Shown in pieces: positions 52,611 to 63,720 of a DNA stretch of 64,000 bases. Positions within the stretch are counted from its first letter, which is position 1; every line of letters begins with the position of its first letter. Source of the DNA: Mobula hypostoma (Eukaryota); contig NC_086108.1 of NCBI RefSeq assembly GCF_963921235.1, positions 87,918,001-87,982,000 of the forward strand. Direction: 5' to 3'. The position numbers and the translations under genes are program-made. The notes under the pieces are model-generated. The model was not told the DNA's origin. It ran no database searches and saw only the letters and a program-made list of their open reading frames with translations.

Positions 52611-55538
52611 CTAGTCCCACTGACCTGCACATGGACCATATCCCTCCATACACCTCTCATCCATGTATCTGTCCAATTTATTCTTAAGTGTTAAAAAAGA
52701 ACCCGCATTTACCACCTCATCTGGCAGCTCATTCCATACTCCCACCACTCTCTGTGTGAAGAAGCCCCCACTAATGTTCCCTTTAAACTTTTCCCCCCTC
52801 ACCCTTAACCCATGTCCTCTGGTTTCTTTCTCCCCTTGCTTCAGTGGAAAAAGCCTGCTTGCATTCACTCTATCTATACCCATCATAATTTTATATACCT
52901 CTATCAAATCTCCCCTCATTCTTCTATGCTCCAGGGAATAAAGTCCTAACCTATTCAACCTTTCTCTGTAACTGAGTTTCTCAAGTCCTGGCAACATCCT
53001 TGTAAACGTTCTCTGCACTCTTTCAACCTTATTTATATCCTTCCTGTAATTTGGTGACCAAAACTGAACACAATACTCCAGATTCGGCCTCACCAATGCC
53101 TTATACAACCTCATCATAACATTCCAGCTCTTATACTCAATACTTTGATTAATAAAGGCCAATGTACCAAAAGCTCTCTTTATGACCCTATCTACCTGTG
53201 ACGCCACTTTTAGGGAATTTTGTATCTGTATTCCCAGATCCCTCTGTTCCACTGTACTCCTCAGTACCTTACCATTTACCCTGTATGTTCTACCTTGGTT
53301 TGTCCCACCAACGTGCAATACCTCACACTTGTCTGTATTAAGCTCCATCTGCCATTTTTCAGCCCATTTTCCCAGCTGGTCCAAGTCCCTCTGCAGGCTC
53401 TGAAAACCTTCCTCACTGTCTACTACACCTCCAATCTTTGTATCATCAGCAAACTTGCTGATCCAATTTACCACATTATCATTCAGATCATTGATATAGA
53501 TGACAAATAACAATGGACCCAGCACTGATCCCTGTGGCACACCACCAGTCACAGGCCTCCACTCGGAGAAGCAATTCTCTACTACCACTCTTTGGCTTCT
53601 TCCATTGAGCCAATGCCTAATCCAATTTACCACCTCTCCATGTATACCTAGCGACTGAATTTTCCTAACTAACCTCCCATGCGGGACCTTGTCAAAGGCC
53701 TTACTGAAGTCCATGTAGACAATATCCACTGCCTTCCCTTCATCCACTTTCCTGGTAACCTCCTCGAAAAACTCCAATAGATTGGTCAAACATGACCTAC
53801 CACGCACAAAGCCATATTGACTCTCCCTAATAAGTCCCTGTCTATCCAAATGCTTGTAGATTCTGTCTCTTAGTACTCCCTCCAATAACTTACCTACTAC
53901 CAACGTTAAATTTACTGGCCTATAATTTCCTGGATTACTTTTCGATCCTTTTTTAAACAACGGAACAACATGAGCCACTCTCCAATCCTCCGGCACCTCA
54001 CCCGTAGACAGCGACATTTTAAATATTTCTGCCAGGGCCCCCACAATTTCAACACTAGTCTCCTTCAAGGTCCAAGGGAACACCCTGTCAGGTCCCGGGG
54101 ATTTATCCACTTTAATTTTCCTCAAGACAGCAAGCACCTCCTCCCTTTCAATCTGTACAGTTTCCATGATCTCACTACTTGATTCCCTTAATTCCATAGA
54201 CTTTATGCCAGTTTCCTTAGTAAATACAGACACAAAAAACCTATTTAAGATCTCCCCCATTTCCTTTGGCTCCACACATAGCCGACCACTCTGATCTTCA
54301 AGAGGACCAATTTTATCCCTTACAATCCTTTTGCTCTTAATATACCTGTAAAAGCTCTTTGGATTATCCTTCACTTTGACTGCCAAGGCAACCTCATGTC
54401 TTCTTTTAGCCCTCCTGATTTCTTTCTTAGGTATTTTCTTGCACTTCTTATACTCCTCAAGCACCTGATTTACTCTCTGTTTCCTATACATTTCATACAA
54501 CTCCCTCTTCTTCTTTATCAGAGTTGCAATATCCCTTGAGAACCAAGGTTCCTTATTCCTATTCACTTTGCCTTTAATCCTGACAGGAACATACAAACTC
54601 TGCACTCTCAAAATTTCTCCTTTGAAGGCTTCCCACCTACTGATCACATCTTTACCAGAGAACAACCTGTCCCAATCCACACTTTTTAGATCCTTTCTCA
54701 TTTCTTCAGATTTGGCCTTCTTCCAGTTCAGAACCTCAATCCTAGGACCAGATCTATCCTTGTCCATGATCAAATTGAAACTAGTGGTGTTATGATCACT
54801 GGAACCAAAGTGCTCCCCTACACAGACTTCTGTCACTTGTCCTAACTCGTTTCCTAACAGGAGATCCAATATTGCATTCCCTCTAGTTGCTCCCTCTATA
54901 TATTGATTTAGAAAACTTTCCTGAACACCTTTTACAAACTCTAAACCATCTAGACCCCTAACAGTATGGGAGTCCCAATCAATATATGGAAAATTAAAAT
55001 TCCCTACCACCACAACTTTATGTTTCCTGCAGTTGCCTGCTATCTCTCTGCATATTTGCTCTTCCAAGTCTTGTTGGCTATTTGGTGGTCTGTAATACAA
55101 TCCCACTAATGTGACCATACCTTTCCTGTTTCTCAGCTCCACCCATAAGGACTCAGTAGACAAGCCCTCTAATCTGTCCTGCCTGAGCACTGCTGTAATA
55201 TTTTCCCTAACAAGCAATGCTACACCCCCACCTTTCATTCCACTGTGTCGATCACATCTGAAACATCGGAACCCTGGAATATTAAGCTGCCAGTCCTGCC
55301 CCTCCTGTAGCCAAGTTTCACTGATTGCTATAACGTCATAATTCCACGTGTCAATCCACGCCCTCAACTCATCTGCCTTCCCCGCAATACTCCTAGCATT
55401 GAAATATATACACCTCAGAAGATTTTTACCACCACTCACAACCTTTCTATCAGCGGATTTGCTTAAACTTTCAACATCATTTATTTTCACCCCAGCCACA
55501 CTGTCAGCTCTGGCACTCTGGTTCCCATCCCCCTGCAA
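52611..55538 (-). CDS. CR1 ORF2 (APE endonuclease + reverse transcriptase), open frame without upstream AUG
   Basis: CIYFNARSI, ISETWL, SSDHN, KSPGPD, DFSKAFDKVPH, GVPQGSVLGP, FADDTK. The GDFN motif reads GNFN. Confidence 0.95.
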   Translation of the reverse strand: MQGDGNQSARADSVAGVKINDVESLSKSADRKVVSGGKNLLRCIYFNARSIAGKADELRAWIDTWNYDVIAISETWLQEGQDWQLNIPGFRCFRCDRHSGMKGGGVALLVRENITAVLRQDRLEGLSTESLWVELRNRKGMVTLVGLYYRPPNSQQDLEEQICREIAGNCRKHKVVVVGNFNFPYIDWDSHTVRGLDGLEFVKGVQESFLNQYIEGATRGNAILDLLLGNELGQVTEVCVGEHFGSSDHNTTSFNLIMDKDRSGPRIEVLNWKKAKSEEMRKDLKSVDWDRLFSGKDVISRWEAFKGEILRVQSLYVPVRIKGKVNRNKEPWFSRDIATLIKKKRELYEMYRKQRVNQVLEEYKKCKKIPKKEIRRAKRRHEVALAVKVKDNPKSFYRYIKSKRIVRDKIGPLEDQSGRLCVEPKEMGEILNRFFVSVFTKETGIKSMELRESSSEIMETVQIEREEVLAVLRKIKVDKSPGPDRVFPWTLKETSVEIVGALAEIFKMSLSTGEVPEDWRVAHVVPLFKKGSKSNPGNYRPVNLTLVVGKLLEGVLRDRIYKHLDRQGLIRESQYGFVRGRSCLTNLLEFFEEVTRKVDEGKAVDIVYMDFSKAFDKVPHGRLVRKIQSLGIHGEVVNWIRHWLNGRSQRVVVENCFSEWRPVTGGVPQGSVLGPLLFVIYINDLNDNVVNWISKFADDTKIGGVVDSEEGFQSLQRDLDQLGKWAEKWQMELNTDKCEVLHVGGTNQGRTYRVNGKVLRSTVEQRDLGIQIQNSLKVASQVDRVIKRAFGTLAFINQSIEYKSWNVMMRLYKALVRPNLEYCVQFWSPNYRKDINKVERVQRTFTRMLPGLEKLSYRERLNRLGLYSLEHRRMRGDLIEVYKIMMGIDRVNASRLFPLKQGEKETRGHGLRVRGEKFKGNISGGFFTQRVVGVWNELPDEVVNAGSFLTLKNKLDRYMDERCMEGYGPCAGQWD

Positions 55539-55540
55539 AT

Positions 55541-56475
55541 CTAGTTTAAAGCCTCCCCAATAGCACTAACAAACCTCCCTGAAAGGATATTGGTCCCCCT
55601 GTAGTTCAAGTGTAACCCGTCTCTCTTGTACAGGTCCCACCTGCCCCAGAAGAGGTCCCAATGATCCAGAAATCTGAAACCCTGCCCCCTACACCAGTTC
55701 CTCAGCCAGTTGTTCATCCTCCAGAGCATCTTATTCCTACCCTCACTGGCACGTGGCACAGGTAGCAATCCTGAGATTACCACCCTCGAGGTCCTGCTTT
55801 TCAACTTCCTACCAAGCTCTCTATACTCACTCTCCAGGACCTTCTCACTCTTCCTTGTTATGTCATTGGTACCGATGTGCACCACGACATCTGGCTGATC
55901 ACCCTCCCACTTCAGAATGTCATGCAATCGATCAGAGACATCCTTGACCCTGGCACCCGGGAGGCAACAAACCATCCTGGATTCTCTGTTTCGACCACAG
56001 ACCTCCTATCTGTACCTCTAACTATCGAGTCCCCTATCACTACTGCTCTCTTCTTTTTCCACCCTCCCTTCTGCACTGCAGAGCCAGACTCAGTGCCAGA
56101 GATCCGGCTACTGCAGCTTGTCCCAGGTAAGTCATCCCCCCCAACAGTATCCAATGCGGTATACTTGTTGTTGAGGGGAATGGCCACAGGGGAACCCTGC
56201 TCTATCTGCCCTTTCCTCTTCCCTCGCCTGACAGTGACCCAATTTCCTGTCCTCTGCTCCTTTGGCGTAACTACCTCCCTGTAGTTACTATCTATAATCT
56301 CCTCATTCTCCCGAATGATCCGGAGGTCATCCAGCTCCTGCTCCAGTTCCCTAACGCGGTTTATTAGGAGCTGCAGCTGGATGCACTTCTTGCAGCTGTC
56401 GTTGTCAGGGACACCGGAGGGCTCCCTGACTTCGCACATCCTGCAAGAGGAGCATTCCAACATCCTGCCTGGCAT
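55541..56475 (-). pseudogene. CR1 ORF1 (zf/lz + SGNH esterase) with one frameshift near 56000
   Basis: CSSCRMC...CKKC plus coiled coil; GDSIVRG, LPGA, HIGTND and DGLHLN esterase blocks split over two frames. Confidence 0.9.
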
Positions 56476-58891
56476 TCTCTCTACTCTAAACTATCTGAAC
56501 AAAAAAAAACTTACCGGAACCTACCCTGACCTCTGCCTGTTCTTGCCGAAGCCTGTTGAGCCAAAGCCGTCCCACTCTGACTCGGTCCACTCCGACGATG
56601 GCCGCTACAACGATGGCCGCTGTACATGGTGGTCTGCTTTTAAACCTTGGCACGCTACGTCACGCGCCTGCGCAGTGCAGACCCTTCTCCCCGAGCAGTG
56701 TTTAAAAGAAAGTTGTATAAACGAGGAAGAAGTGTTCTTGAATTTTCACGTTTATTTGCACCCCTTGTTCGACCCACGATTAGGATAAAGAGTCGATGAA
56801 TCTGCATGGACAAGGATAGACATCACGGGAACCAAAAAGATAAACTTTGTGTGTGGCAGACGAAAAATGAAATATTTTATGTTAAGCAACAAACAAACTG
56901 CTCGAAGAACTGTGGGAGGAAAGGAATTGTCGATGTGTGGAGTGCGTCAAGATGGAGAAGATTGTTTGGAATGCATTCCTCCAGCAGATTGTTTGTTGCT
57001 CCAGATTCCAGCATCTGCGGCCTCCTGTGTCTCTTTTGTGACAATCGGACAATATTGGTGAGTTTTGAAACTGGTGAACCTAATATGGTTTTACTAAATG
57101 GTGGCTCAGACCCAAAGGATCCTAAAAGCTTATTCCAATCTATTTATTTTATTTTGTGTATTTGAGATTAATGAATTATATTCCTGAAGGTTCAAGAACA
57201 GTTAGTTCCCTTTAACTACTCAGTTTTTGAACTTACCTGCATGACTCTAATCATTACCCCAGTATAGCAACATTATGACCACTTTGCACTACAATGAGAT
57301 TTGTATTTTTTGTTCTAATTGTGTTGTTTCTTGTAAAAATTGTGTATAATTTATGTTTCATTTTTCTTGTGAATGCTGCTTATTTGAGCTAAATGCTTGT
57401 GATGCAACTAAGTTTTTCATGCACTAATGCATATAATAGTAAATTTGACTTTGACTTTATATTGAACTAGACGGACTTGATGAGGGGCTGAACACTTTCT
57501 TAAAGTAGATTCTAGGTATTTTTTCAACTGCTGACGACAATCTCATTGGTCTGGCTTTTCCTACTTACTCTCCCTTTTTAAGAATTGGGTTAAGTTTGTT
57601 ACCTTCTGTGAGAACAATGGGAATCTATGGGAATCTATGAAGTGCAGAATCAAATATTGCTGTGGTGATTGTACATTCTAGTATCAATTGTTTGGCGACA
57701 ATAAAGTATAAAGTATATAAGCATAAGACCATAAGATATAGGAGCAGATTTAGGCTATTTGGCCAATTGAATCTGCCATTTTATCATGGCTGATTCCATT
57801 TTCCCTCTCAGCCCCGTGCCTTCTCCCCATAATCTATTCATGCCCTGACTAATCAAGAATCTCTCTGCCTTAAATATACATAAAGACTTGGCCTCCACAG
57901 CCACCTGTGGCAATGAATTCCACAAATTCACTACTCTCTGGCTGAAGAAATTTCTCCTCATCTCTGTTCTAAAAGGATGCCCCTCTATTCTAAGGCTGTG
58001 TCTTCTGGTGTTAGAAACTAAGCAAGATGGTAATCAATGTATCCAATATCTTTTTGGGCACTGTATTTCCAAAAGGTTTTCTGTGCTCTTCTTCCATGAT
58101 GACAAATAGAAAATAGATTCTTGCAGGTTTAGAGTTGTGCGGCATAGAAATAGGCCCTTGAATTAAACAAATTAATTAAACCTGAATTGAACAAAAATAT
58201 TTGTTTAATTTCTCTCGTTATTTCTTTCTTCCTGTCTCACTTTGTCTGCGGCCTTCATTAATCTTTGCCTCTCCATGGAGATGAATTTAAATTAAAAATG
58301 GTAAAAACAAATGGTACAGTAATTCTGTTCTCATGGGATGCAGACTTACAAACCCTGTGTTTATTTAAAAAAGTCTTCAACTTGTTTTTGTCCAGGTTTC
58401 CAACTAATTAAATGAAAATCAAACAAATTGATGCAATATTTCCTGATGATCTGATAGAGGTGTTTAATTCAAAGTCAAAGTACATTTATTATTAAAGTGC
58501 AAGTATGTCACCATATACAACCCTGACATTCATTTCCATGGGAAAATGATGGGAATTTAAGACAATTTTGCACTATTACTACATGTTACATCAGAAGTTC
58601 TGTTTTCTGTGTGTGCACAGAGGGAAGGACTACTTGTATCTGGTCTGTCCTTTTTCAGGATAATCAAAGCTTGTTTTACCCAATGGCAAACTGAGAGAAT
58701 AATTCTTTAATCAACAATGAAAGAAGACCTTAATTAAATCTTTCTGCAGAACTGATAAGCAGAAATAAGCTTATAAAAGAAGAAACAGACCACAGCATTT
58801 AGTAGAAGTAACCTATTAGGCAATGCAGGTTTTAGCCACTGATACGTCTGTTACACTGCCTTGGTGCTACTGTATAGCTGTCTGCATAAGT

Positions 58892-59506
58892 TTATTCTTT
58901 GAGTAGAGAGCACTGCTGGGAGAAAATATTTGGCTCCAAATCAGAAAGAAGGAGATACGTATGATTTGAAATGTCTGTTGCACTCATTGATCGATAATCA
59001 AATGGCACTGGGAAATGCAAGTGAGCAAAGAGGTGGAGCACCTCGTCATAACTGACCAATGGCGTTGGGTGATGTTGTTTTAGGCCGCCAACATTAACTG
59101 GCTGCAATGAGGTGAGCTGTTTATTCCCACTGATGTCACTTTGGATATGTCCTTTGTGAGCCTTTGTGTCAGGGGCAGGAAGCCACCTTTGTGACTGGGA
59201 GTCATGCACCAAATTACTTTTGTCCTTCTTGCGAAAATTTGTATCTTCCTGAGGAAGAGATGATGAGTCTTGCAGATCCAAAAAAATATAGTTCTGCATC
59301 CCGTTGTTGGATCCCTTGGTTTCATCACCTGTTTCTTCTTCCTGCAGCTTGCTGGTGGAGGATTCATTGGAGGGATGCTTCTGACAAATAGCCTCTTGCT
59401 TTTCTACACACTTCTTGCCATCATTTCCAATTCCTTCAGAAATGATTTCCAGAATTGAAGGGAGGGGCTCATTGTCAACAGGTTTGTCATAGGTGGGCTG
59501 CAAAGG
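58892..59506 (-). CDS. MPL: Thrombopoietin receptor (MPL), last coding exon (cytoplasmic tail)
   Basis: EPLPSILEII resembles MPL Box2 (EPSLLEIL), FDYRSM resembles MDYRRL, and DISNHTYLLLS resembles IANHSYLPLS. Acceptor ttttctgttgccag|, phase 0; 204 codons plus stop. MPL lies upstream of CDC20 on the same strand in other vertebrates. Confidence 0.85.
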   Translation of the reverse strand, partial: PLQPTYDKPVDNEPLPSILEIISEGIGNDGKKCVEKQEAICQKHPSNESSTSKLQEEETGDETKGSNNGMQNYIFLDLQDSSSLPQEDTNFRKKDKSNLVHDSQSQRWLPAPDTKAHKGHIQSDISGNKQLTSLQPVNVGGLKQHHPTPLVSYDEVLHLFAHLHFPVPFDYRSMSATDISNHTYLLLSDLEPNIFSQQCSLLKE

Positions 59507-59789
59507 CTGGCAACAGAAAAAGATCACAGTTTTTCATCAGTCTTATTTGCTTTTACATTTTCCACACATTTGTTGCTCTGATTAGTGGATCTTGCCAAAA
59601 TAAATATTTGTGGAATATTTGCTCATTGGGTTAATTAAAAAACATTATCCTGCCCTTGTCTGAATTAAATTCCATCTACCATTGCTCTGCCCAACTCTCC
59701 AGCTAATCAATCTTCAACTATATCTCTATACAACCTTATCGATTATCTACAATTCCAACCATTTTTGTGTTGTCAATAAACGTACTAAT

Positions 59790-60288: not shown

Positions 60289-62045
60289 TATTAAAAAGAA
60301 AGTCCCAGCACTGATCCCTGTAGAATGACACTAGTTACAGATTTCCATTCAGAAAATACTCCTGACCCTTACTTTCTGTCTCTTATCCAGTTCACCAGCA
60401 TATTTTGGATGTTCTGTGTCTCATCCTTCCTGAGCAGCCTTGTTAAAAGCCTTATCAAAGTCCACATGGAAAACATTTACTGCCCTGCCTTCATCATTCT
60501 GCTTGGATACATCTTCAGAAAACTCTGTTGGATTTATACAGTACTTGCTTACATTTGCAGAAATGCAATTTGGTTTGAACAGTCAGTCTGAACACATCAC
60601 TCTTCAGCATCTTGTGACATTTTGCACATATTGGTGAACAAAGTACAGCAGAATTTATGAATTTGGATAAGGTAGCGATTTTGTTTAGGCTTTAAAAGAC
60701 ATTTGGAGAGGTATGTGGATCACATGAATCCCCTTAGCCAGGAGCGCAAACCGTTTTGAGAGTGTGTGCCCAAATTGATGATAATTTTCTAAAAACTTCT
60801 CTCGCAAGCCATAACAATTTTGAGCAGAGATTATCATTGGTTACTGAATTAGTAACAATAATTATGGACTTTTTAAAGGGAGAAGGCTGAGTCCTGTTGC
60901 TTATTGATGTGTACTCATAGTTTTAATAAATGTATAATTAAGACAGATTGAATGAATCAAACATTTTAGAAAGTCTATTAAAATTATTAATGCTAATCTT
61001 TTAAAAAGACAGTAGGAAAAAAAAGCATCACTTCTAAATAGTAGTGCTATTGTAATTGTTTATTGTCCAAATACTGATGTGTACAACAAGTCTGTGAGGA
61101 TTTCAAAGTGTATCATCTGATGTCAGGTGTCCTTGCAACTGTCTCACTGGCACCAAGCCTATGTGACACGATTCATGTGAAAATATCTCACTGCTCCCTG
61201 GTTGTAAAATTCATTCACTGCTTCATTTGGCAGTACAGATAATCATTATGGGTAGGTTTAAAGAATCGAGGGGCAGAACTGCATGCCACTTGCCAGCTTG
61301 AGTATGTATGCCATAGGCTTGCCACCTCTACCGTAGGCTTTGAAGGTGATGACCCGAGCACTGGAAGATGGGATAAATATGGTCAATGTGAAAATGGTGG
61401 GCTGAAGGGCCTGTTGCCAAGATGTATGTTGTTATGATCTACATAGGCCTTAATTTCCCAGTCTTTCAAAAAAATTGTATCCACATTATATGCTTCTTGC
61501 GTGCTGGCTCCAAAACTCACTGGAGCAGAGGATTCCAGAGATGCAATACCTTCTGTGAGAAGAGGATTACTTGTCAGGAATCCCGGTATTCATCCTTTTA
61601 AACACATCTTCTATAAACCCATTTACAGAAATAAAAGTGTTTTCTTTACCATTGTATTTTCTATTTCCTCCATGATATCTATCACTTTCTTTGTCATAGG
61701 TTATTCCTTAGGATTGAGGATGAATTACTTCCATTTTGGTTTAATGTATTCTGAGGAATCTGAACTTTTTTTTTGAGTGACACTATTTTATTGCTATCTT
61801 ATATGTGCTACATGCACCCTGTGCTGTGTATGAATGTTGGTATTGTGGTTTGCATCTTGGCCTCGGAGTAACGCTGTTTTGTTTGGTTGTATTCATGGGT
61901 TATCATGTATGAGTGAATGACAATTAAACTTGAGCTTGAACATGAAGATCAAGACCTCAGATCTGGCAACAAACTCATGATCATTGGATCCCTGCCCTCC
62001 CACAGATCCTGAGATCTGCTGTAACTACACCAAGTACATCATGGT

Positions 62046-62569
62046 CAGTCAGTGAAGTCAGTGGGTGCTATCCCAAATCCGGGGTTGGCGGCTATACACC
62101 TCCATCTTCTTCAATCTTGCGACAGCACCGAGTGCAGCCTCTCCTCCAGTTTGTTCTCGTTGGCTGCCTTGGCACTGCCCACCGCCGCCCCCGCCGAACT
62201 CGAGCCCGAGGCCGTGTCGGCCTCCAGCCGCGGCCGCTTCTTCGAGCTCGGCCCTTCCTTAGGCGGAGGCCTTGGGCAGGTGAAGGCACACGGTGCAGCA
62301 CCCAAGTTCATCATGTCTCTTCTAACTAGGTGCATAGCATACGATTCATAGATACGTGGTGAGGCTTTAATCTCTTCCACGGAAGATGGCCGTTGGCTCA
62401 CAAGGAGCACATCCGCCCTTTGTCAGGTCTTGTTTTTTAGTCCTGCTTGGGTGTCCTCACACCCTCCTCACCAGACTAAGTCCAGTGGGGGAACCGGCCA
62501 AGTCACTGACCACTCGACCACAGCCCCTGGCCAAGCGCCGGACGCCCACCTCCTGCCAAATCTCTCTGA
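62046..62569 (-). mobile_element. Non-autonomous RTE-derived retroposon with a captured GC-rich gene fragment
   Basis: TSD ACATCATGGT (62036-62045) and ACGTCATGGT (62570-62579); (ACTG)n-like tail; RTE-like C-terminal remnant QD*RRWR. It interrupts an older plus-strand RTE remnant. Confidence 0.7.
62123..62275 (-). pseudogene. Fragment resembling the CYHR1/ZFTRAF1 N-terminal coding sequence
   Basis: PSSKKRPRLEA...(A/G/S-rich)...NKLEERLHSVL resembles recalled vertebrate CYHR1 PPKKRLR...GKLEERLYSVLC. It is truncated before the RING cysteines. Confidence 0.6.
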
Positions 62570-63399
62570 ACGTCATGGTACAGGATGGATATCAACAATA
62601 CTGTGTCTTCAAATTTCAGAATCATTGATGCTCTTCTCACACTCAGTCAGTTACATTGCACATGACATATTATTCATGTATTTGACACCATTCTCCTGAA
62701 ATTGACACTTTGTTCTGGGATTGTCAGGCAGACTAAGGAAAATATTCAATGATGTGATCAAATTTCCCTGGAAAATCTGGGAATCTTTGGCCCACAGTTG
62801 CTCAAAATGGATGGAGATGGAGCACTTGAGATGGTAATGAAAGTCTCGAGGCCAAGCATTGGGAGTGGACAGAAGTCCTGCGTAAACTACAGGAGGGGTG
62901 CACTGTCAAATTAACCACTCATTGTAAAGGCGAACATCAAAAACAAAATTCATTATTGCCTTCAGTATGTGTGATCATCCATTGACTGATTAAGGAAACA
63001 TTCAACATTTGTCGGAGATCACTTGTCTTTTACAAACGTTCACTGACTGATTTCTGTTTATTTTGGTGCAGGGATGCGCTGCTGTGTATGGATTCGTGTG
63101 CTGTGGTTTCCTCCCACATTCCAAGTACTGTACATATGAGTTAGGGTTAGTAAGTTGTGGGCATGCTATGTTGGTGCCAGAAGCAAGGTGACACCTGTGG
63201 ACTGCTCCCTGTATTCCTGGACCGTGTTGGTCAATGACACAAACAACACCATTTACTGTATGTTTCAATGTACTGTACACATGACAAATAAATCGAATCT
63301 CTTTAATCTTTAAATTTTCCCCATATTATAGAAATTTGCCCATGGTTGATGGTAAACTGTCTATAGTTATAACATTATTTCTTTCTCCTTTCTTGCACT

Positions 63400-63720
63400 A
63401 ATCTCTGCTTGTTATGCTGCTGGCGTTTAGGATAGCAACGAAGGTCCTCCATCTCTGTTATACTGTCACACACAGATAGAGGATTCCTTATTGTTGTTTC
63501 CATTACAGCTTTTTTTGCCCAGTCAGGGTTGTTAGCCCTGAGCTGAGCCCCCAGACCTGGAGGATCAGGGGACCACTCTTAGTCCGGCCCCTACCCTCTA
63601 ACCTGTTTGGCATAGGTGACCCTACCAAGAGTCAAAGCACAAGGCCCTGACTCCAGCCAACATAGCTGTCCAGATCATTGAAGCATATAAGCTTCCAAAC
63701 CCTATGACAAGGTCTTGGAG
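63400..63720 (-). mobile_element. Short RTE (Expander/Rex3-like 5' UTR) derived element
   Basis: Minus strand reads ACCTTGTCATAGGG...TCAATGATC...AGCTATGTTG...GGTAGGGTCACC..GCCAAACAGGT, resembling RTE 5' UTRs. Confidence 0.55.

Follow-up and report, generated by a model that had tools for sequence, protein, structure and literature searches.

An insert in the last intron of an MPL-like gene of Mobula hypostoma is one 5'-truncated copy of a 578-nt non-autonomous retroposon family in which a piece of the first exon of the host gene ZFTRAF1 (CYHR1), its two parts in swapped order, lies between sequences derived from an RTE-type LINE. That such a family exists, and that it captured host sequence, we regard as close to certain.

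The insert lies on the minus strand of the window, by which we mean the whole 64,000-nucleotide stretch of DNA that was analysed. A sequence-only reading had described it as 524 bp long, flanked by a 10-bp direct repeat with one mismatch (62036-62045 and 62570-62579), ending in an (ACTG)n tail, containing the frame MMNLG...KKRPRLEA...KLEERLHSVL-SQD*RRWR and situated in an intron near the last exon of MPL, and we confirmed each of these points. The insert is in sense orientation to the gene. Two WSxWS exons upstream of it gave best matches to thrombopoietin receptor chains (E 9.7e-12 and 8.9e-9), a Box1-like exon is found at about 64,977, just past the window end, and a frame at 58892-59533 looks, by its motif, like the last exon. 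Elsewhere on the minus strand of the window, a LINE that is close to full length occupies positions 52611-56490; its endonuclease-RT frame is open over 984 aa, ORF1-like pieces lie upstream, and it looks CR1-like. A second short element at about 63390-63720 appears by eye to consist of another RTE-type 5' part plus a 3' end; the single frame of this element that was translated contained nothing recognisable.

Size, parts and LINE partner of the family

A search of the genome with the insert returned 2,082 candidates, and all 40 that were scored matched along almost the entire length, at an identity of at least 90%. The internal junction between the two host blocks (the ring closure, as discussed below) was covered by a motif with 238 exact matches, compared with none for a control. 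Because this motif was intact in only 10 of 30 and 3 of 19 copies picked by other criteria, we estimate the family at about 700-1,500 copies, with 238 as the minimum. We fetched 54 copies among the 100 internal-junction matches listed, and found that all 54 span the internal junction and 53 span each of the outer joints. Their 3' ends are common and their 5' starts variable, and target-site duplications of at least 7 bp flank 30 of the 54, against 0.6 in shuffled pairs, as is characteristic of a unit moved by target-primed reverse transcription. Together with the 40 near-complete matches and the 238 junction matches, these duplications bear out the earlier suggestion that the chimera could spread a host exon fragment, as the family has spread as a unit. 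The ring closure was also bridged, by at least 31 nt on both sides, in contigs of organism A (X1 record 5, X4 record 21) and organism B (X2 record 12); these belong to a set of contigs from four runs guessed to be RNA. Copies L129 and L130 have in common a 6-nt deletion at the closure plus other changes, and may represent a small sub-lineage or a segmental duplication.

In the window copy, the 3' end of the element consists of the last 76 nt of the LINE (62046-62121, minus strand), which comprise the (ACTG)n tail (about 62046-62062) and the end of the ORF and are 88-99% identical to the 3' ends of plain RTE copies; the first bases of the target-site duplication on this side (62036-62045) overlap the tail. 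Going towards the 5' end, these are followed, all on the minus strand, by 138 nt of ZFTRAF1 exon 1 (block B, 62122-62259), by a further 40 nt of the same exon (block A, 62260-62299), and by RTE 5' UTR with the start codon (62300-62493; ATG at 62314), which was delimited against loci L074 and L076 and the majority of 30 RTE 5' loci and carries family-specific 7-nt and 10-nt deletions. The remainder, defined by comparison with the RTE 5' UTR and the family, is the 3' arm of a head hairpin (62494-62548) and the hairpin loop (62549-62566) with an 8-nt stump of the inverted 5' arm, the two together covering 62549-62574. The window copy is without the first 47 of the 578 nt of the family and therefore cannot form the long hairpin. 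Bases 62570-62574 of the duplication at the 5' side (62570-62579) also align to the family head and may instead be element sequence, so the true duplication at this copy could be 5-7 bp plus microhomology.

The ends of the element derive from a 3.4-kb RTE-type LINE of the same genome, which we reached through a contig end. Thirty loci with the LINE 3' region had the last 76 nt in common with the family and did not contain the host piece. Six LINE loci were extended, and two of them (L074 and L076) are full length, at 3.4 kb, with the same 5' UTR and start codon as the family. The LINE ORF contains an RVT_1 domain (E 1.3e-25). Judged by its endonuclease and C-terminal motifs, the LINE may belong to the RTE clade, as either RTE or RTE-X. 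At the 3' end the family majority and the RTE majority differ at 1 of 72 positions, and both outer joints between the host piece and the RTE parts are blunt.

Among 30 loci sampled by their 3' end, 19 were chimeras, 11 were plain RTE (four of which were also in the earlier set) and none was an empty bipartite form; an exact-pattern search of the genome for the empty bipartite join likewise gave no matches. Of the 30 RTE loci sampled with their 5' UTR, 8 (L095, L097, L098, L099, L101, L103, L113 and L116) carry an inverted segment. Such frequent inversion by the partner LINE may explain the fold-back head of the family, which is described below.

Another contig end left the element identically in two organisms and led to one unique host locus. 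The first exon at this locus matches ZFTRAF1/CYHR1 homologues, best those of sawfish and skates (best E 1.4e-39), and the sawfish protein maps to a single four-exon ZFTRAF1 gene with a first intron of about 91 kb; a motif search for exon 2 in the first 60 kb downstream of the host exon had found nothing, and the exon was later placed about 91 kb away. The other 98 of 102 scored matches to ZFTRAF1 cover only the captured part, with no second full copy of the gene among them. The earlier assignment of the middle segment to CYHR1 is thus supported, and the family majority is identical to ZFTRAF1 exon 1 at 175 of 178 positions. The identity of the segment stands and its borders do not: it had been placed at 62123-62305, and it occupies 62122-62299, 178 nt, as two blocks in swapped order.

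In the family majority, host positions 1661-1700 (39 of 40 identical) are followed by positions 1523-1660 (136 of 138) of the reversed locus L031, so that the downstream 40 nt (block A; G000:C5:228091006-228091045) come first in the element and the upstream 138 nt (block B; G000:C5:228091046-228091183) come second. In the window copy, block B is identical to the host at 131 of 138 positions. Together the two blocks are an exact rotation of a 178-nt piece; at the opening point no base is missing and none is duplicated. The piece is wholly exonic and in sense orientation to the RTE.

It has to be considered that the segment is an ordinary part of an autonomous RTE and resembles CYHR1 by chance. 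The 49-52 aa peptide of the element, searched directly against proteins, gave no match, as this reading would predict (none of 68 candidates in the first search, no hits in a second, no real Pfam match), but the segment matches an exon of a single-copy gene at 175 of 178 nt and is absent from all RTE copies examined, including 30 RTE 5' loci and 11 plain RTE 3' loci. This reading is refuted by these observations, and we give it practically no credence.

Origin of the rotated host piece

The sequence-only reading had attributed the element to template switching between RTE RNA and a host mRNA. A chimera of RTE and host sequence is what we find, but a simple switch onto a linear mRNA is disfavoured, because it would give a colinear piece, whereas this one is exactly rotated. 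An exact rotation of unit length is the trace expected of a circle that was opened once or copied for one lap. We therefore consider a circular intermediate, opened once, to be the best explanation, with a probability somewhat above even. In this scheme the RTE reverse transcriptase would have jumped onto a small circle of ZFTRAF1 exon 1, likely RNA, that measured 178-180 nt and had its closure close to the exon-1 donor; after one lap the enzyme would have returned to the RTE RNA.

We favour RNA over DNA for the circle because the piece is exonic, in sense orientation and closes by the donor, and because the RTE interior was replaced with no empty parent left. The details that fit an RNA circle are the closure 4 nt from the donor, the possibility of rewriting it at AG(G), the blunt outer joints, and the absence of an empty parent in the 30 sampled 3' ends. 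Against any circle, neither an intermediate nor an empty parent is present among the copies examined, the closure has no microhomology, the event is single, and hops on a linear template can also abut exactly. An RNA circle is accordingly a reading that we would put below even probability, if well ahead of a negligible one.

The ring closes where block A ends, 4 nt short of the exon-1 splice donor, and the upstream block begins with AG. As written, the closure has no microhomology, but it can also be read as a 180-nt ring joined through a shared AG(G), with 2 nt lost afterwards. The would-be acceptor is poor, having a G at -3, no pyrimidine tract and a better AG 24 nt upstream, which makes ordinary back-splicing doubtful as the source of the closure. 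Rescuing a donor/acceptor closure would require the 2-nt loss, with an intermediate that keeps those 2 nt in no copy listed, and a GAG acceptor. No copy keeps the last bases of the exon at the closure among the 100 matches listed, all of which have a 7-nt gap there; two longer gaps at the closure are local duplications.

Alternatively, there may have been no circle, and the RTE reverse transcriptase may have made three jumps on linear ZFTRAF1 RNA, whether mRNA, pre-mRNA or a free exon-1 intermediate. It would have copied block B, hopped downstream, copied block A back to its own RNA-DNA hybrid or to a break at the point of entry, and returned to the RTE RNA. Such a course would produce exact abutment without a circle, and the weakness of the acceptor and the narrow miss of the donor are in keeping with it. 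For LINEs, double template jumps have been described (PMC2104539), as have LINE-mRNA chimeras with first exons that precede long introns (10.1101/2025.02.02.635956), and intron 1 of ZFTRAF1 is of this kind. It requires one jump more than a circle opened once, from an internal position to an internal position, and the chimeras just cited are colinear, not rotated. We hold this course to be possible but rather doubtful.

A DNA microcircle from a CpG-island first exon could also have been cut once and end-joined into a broken RTE copy without its interior, which would then have become the master. The first exon of ZFTRAF1 is 71% GC, AG(G) is common to both ends of the piece, and its size is about 180 bp, which is the size of a mononucleosome. 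Exons, 5' UTRs and CpG islands are the preferred sources of microDNAs, although the usual size given for them is 200-400 bp (PMC8040306). A microcircle would leave unexplained why the piece closes within 4 nt of a splice donor and why it is in sense orientation, both weak objections, and it would require a coincident 3-kb deletion with blunt joints. We regard this DNA form of the circle as improbable.

The head hairpin and its A-to-G changes

We compared the head of the family, as the majority of 51 copies, with the majority of 30 RTE 5' loci. The head lacks 98 nt of the RTE 5' UTR, and at its 5' end this shortened form is repeated in inverted orientation. The head is wholly RTE-derived, and thus differs from the small-RNA-derived head of a tRNA- or 5S-headed SINE. 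Since both arms carry the 98-nt deletion, the fold-back inverted duplication of the 5' end would have taken place after it, during the same insertion as the capture or a later one. The full-length copy L012 is predicted to fold at -93.3 kcal/mol (z -6.6). No Rfam match came near the gathering score in three full-length copies, and there was none in the RTE 5' end; no ribozyme is shown by these searches.

On the RNA strand, adenosines of the RTE have become G at 10 of 13 positions in the 3' arm, 3 of 5 in the 5' arm and 2 of 5 in the loop. Outside the hairpin this change is found at 0 of 56 adenosines in the rest of the 5' part and 0 of 28 in the host piece, and the difference between the arms (13 of 18) and the outside (0 of 84) is highly significant (Fisher 9e-13). 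The hairpin has four other substitutions. No A-to-G change is mirrored in the opposite arm, and 13 G-U pairs result. Each arm therefore keeps the ancestral state of the other, which makes the changes strand-specific and later than the duplication. In the independent set of 54 copies, G is the fixed state.

Clustered A-to-G changes on the transcribed strand that are confined to a stem and unmirrored are what defines ADAR hyper-editing, and we conclude that the changes very probably reflect editing followed by reverse transcription and fixation in a founder, the enzyme itself being inferred from this pattern. A point against ADAR is that several of the edited sites are preceded by G, a 5' neighbour that the enzyme disfavours. 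No unedited head was seen among the copies examined. We also considered a less-edited subfamily, as one non-CpG site has A in 5 of 77 aligned copies (the window copy included), and rejected it, these being too few to set against back-mutation.

Deletions within the hairpin were observed in L010, L016, L162, L183, L186, L187 and L202, as would be expected if the stem is sometimes skipped or excised. Directly before the arm, 16 of 29 copies that reach the 5' end (for example L012, L155, L185 and L205) have TT, which is not templated by the RTE and may mark the transcription start of the master from a flanking promoter.

After the capture, then, ADAR would have edited the RNA stem, reverse transcription would have fixed the edits in one master of all sampled copies, and the RTE would have amplified the family in trans by recognising the common 3' end. 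The whole course, in which a sub-exonic ZFTRAF1 circRNA was copied for one lap, the lineage was hyper-edited by ADAR and a fitter master, with an A-depleted, G-U-rich hairpin head fixed by host RNA editing, outgrew its autonomous partner by about 2:1, is one that we put forward tentatively.

Age, reading frame and relation to known elements

The retained CpGs had been read as a sign of recent origin, which the family does not support. Its copies differ from the majority by 6.1%, or 3.3% outside CpG, and have lost 38% of their CpGs (940 of 2,472). RTE copies show 3.2% divergence outside CpG, and the near-equality of the two values suggests that the family is as old as its partner LINE. The window copy itself is 8.3% from the majority and has lost 17 of 48 CpGs overall. 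Its host block has lost only 3 of 20, while the corresponding figure for 54 other copies is 349 of 1026, so that the retention is a quirk of the host block in this copy and a misleading sign of recent age.

The host sequence had also been described as captured in frame. This applies to block B (62122-62259), which is in the host frame (EGPSSKKR...SVL), and not to block A (62260-62299), which is host sequence read in another frame. The motif MMNLG, taken for an in-frame joint, is the RTE start codon after the 10-nt deletion. The chimeric ORF (62111-62314, minus strand) is 67 aa long in the window copy, where CpG decay has produced a stop at codon 68, and 86 aa long in the family majority, where it is open from the RTE start to the RTE stop. 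Of 51 distinct copies, 34 were scorable, and 21 of these had at least 80 open codons, two of them through frameshifts. The two frames would both match by chance in 1 of 9 cases, and the open majority ORF is therefore no evidence of selection.

That the family was favoured or used for a function, as an 86-aa nuclear peptide or as antisense or small RNAs regulating ZFTRAF1, would be in keeping with an ORF that 19 of the 34 scorable copies retain and with the coverage of the element by contigs of runs guessed to be RNA. Set against it, in addition to the odds of matching frames and the stop in the window copy, the copies decay at CpGs as neutral DNA does, and the changes among them are mostly amino-acid-changing, as judged by eye and uncounted. 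We consider this very unlikely; nothing supports a function of the family or the host piece, and the host piece is most likely a passenger. The suggested interaction of its transcripts with the parent mRNA finds no support here; since the window copy is sense to MPL, its sequence within MPL pre-mRNA would have the orientation of ZFTRAF1 mRNA.

Bov-A, RTESINE1/2, MAR4_MD and WALLSI3 are bipartite, ORF-less non-autonomous RTE LINEs (Kojima 2018, PMC5786205), and the family resembles them in joining a 5' UTR part to the extreme 3' end with a microsatellite tail, in having no small-RNA head and in its mobilisation in trans. Its 5' UTR comes from a partner in the same genome, and the 3' end and tail are common to both. 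Unlike these elements, it has a host exon piece between the halves, no empty form of it was found, and an edited fold-back hairpin replaces the native 5' end. The family thus works like a bipartite RTE element yet is tripartite.

Pseudogenes derived from circRNAs also contain non-colinear host exon sequence that was reverse-transcribed into the genome, and they can be multi-copy, with 33 for circRFWD2 (Dong et al. 2016, PMC4897178). Those pseudogenes have exon-exon back-splice junctions, whereas here the order is non-colinear without a junction between a donor and an upstream acceptor, the ring lies within one first exon and closes 4 nt short of its donor, and the piece is exactly one unit long and rides in a LINE-derived element with hundreds of copies. 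Template-jump chimeras are similar in that cellular RNA is fused to LINE RNA and that first exons and long first introns recur (PMC2104539; 10.1101/2025.02.02.635956), but they are for the most part one-off insertions in which colinear host RNA lies at the 5' end, and here the host piece is internal, rotated and part of an amplified family. Pack-TIRs and LTR-mediated retrocopies likewise place host gene fragments inside a transposable element, although the vehicles in the accounts cited are DNA transposons or LTR elements (PMC8277862, PMC5131818) and the family is non-LTR.

A literature search on CYHR1/ZFTRAF1 with transposable elements, on genome-fixed edited retroelements and on rotated reinsertions, judged by titles and the starts of abstracts, returned nothing that describes such a family or master. 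Bipartite RTE elements, circRNA retrocopies and LINE template jumps are each known, and that search turned up no amplifying family in which they are combined.

In practice, a conserved coding piece present about a thousand times will confound ZFTRAF1 annotation and read mapping in this group. The exact one-lap rotation is a testable signature of how a non-LTR reverse transcriptase behaves on circular or nicked templates. In the head hairpin, the unedited opposite arm serves as an internal control and makes this an unusually clean record of germline-inherited A-to-I editing, one that lets us ask whether editing can create a successful master element, beyond restricting such elements. If the reading that combines a circRNA with editing is true, the family would be a germline fossil, in many hundreds of copies, of circle capture and editing-driven retroposon evolution.
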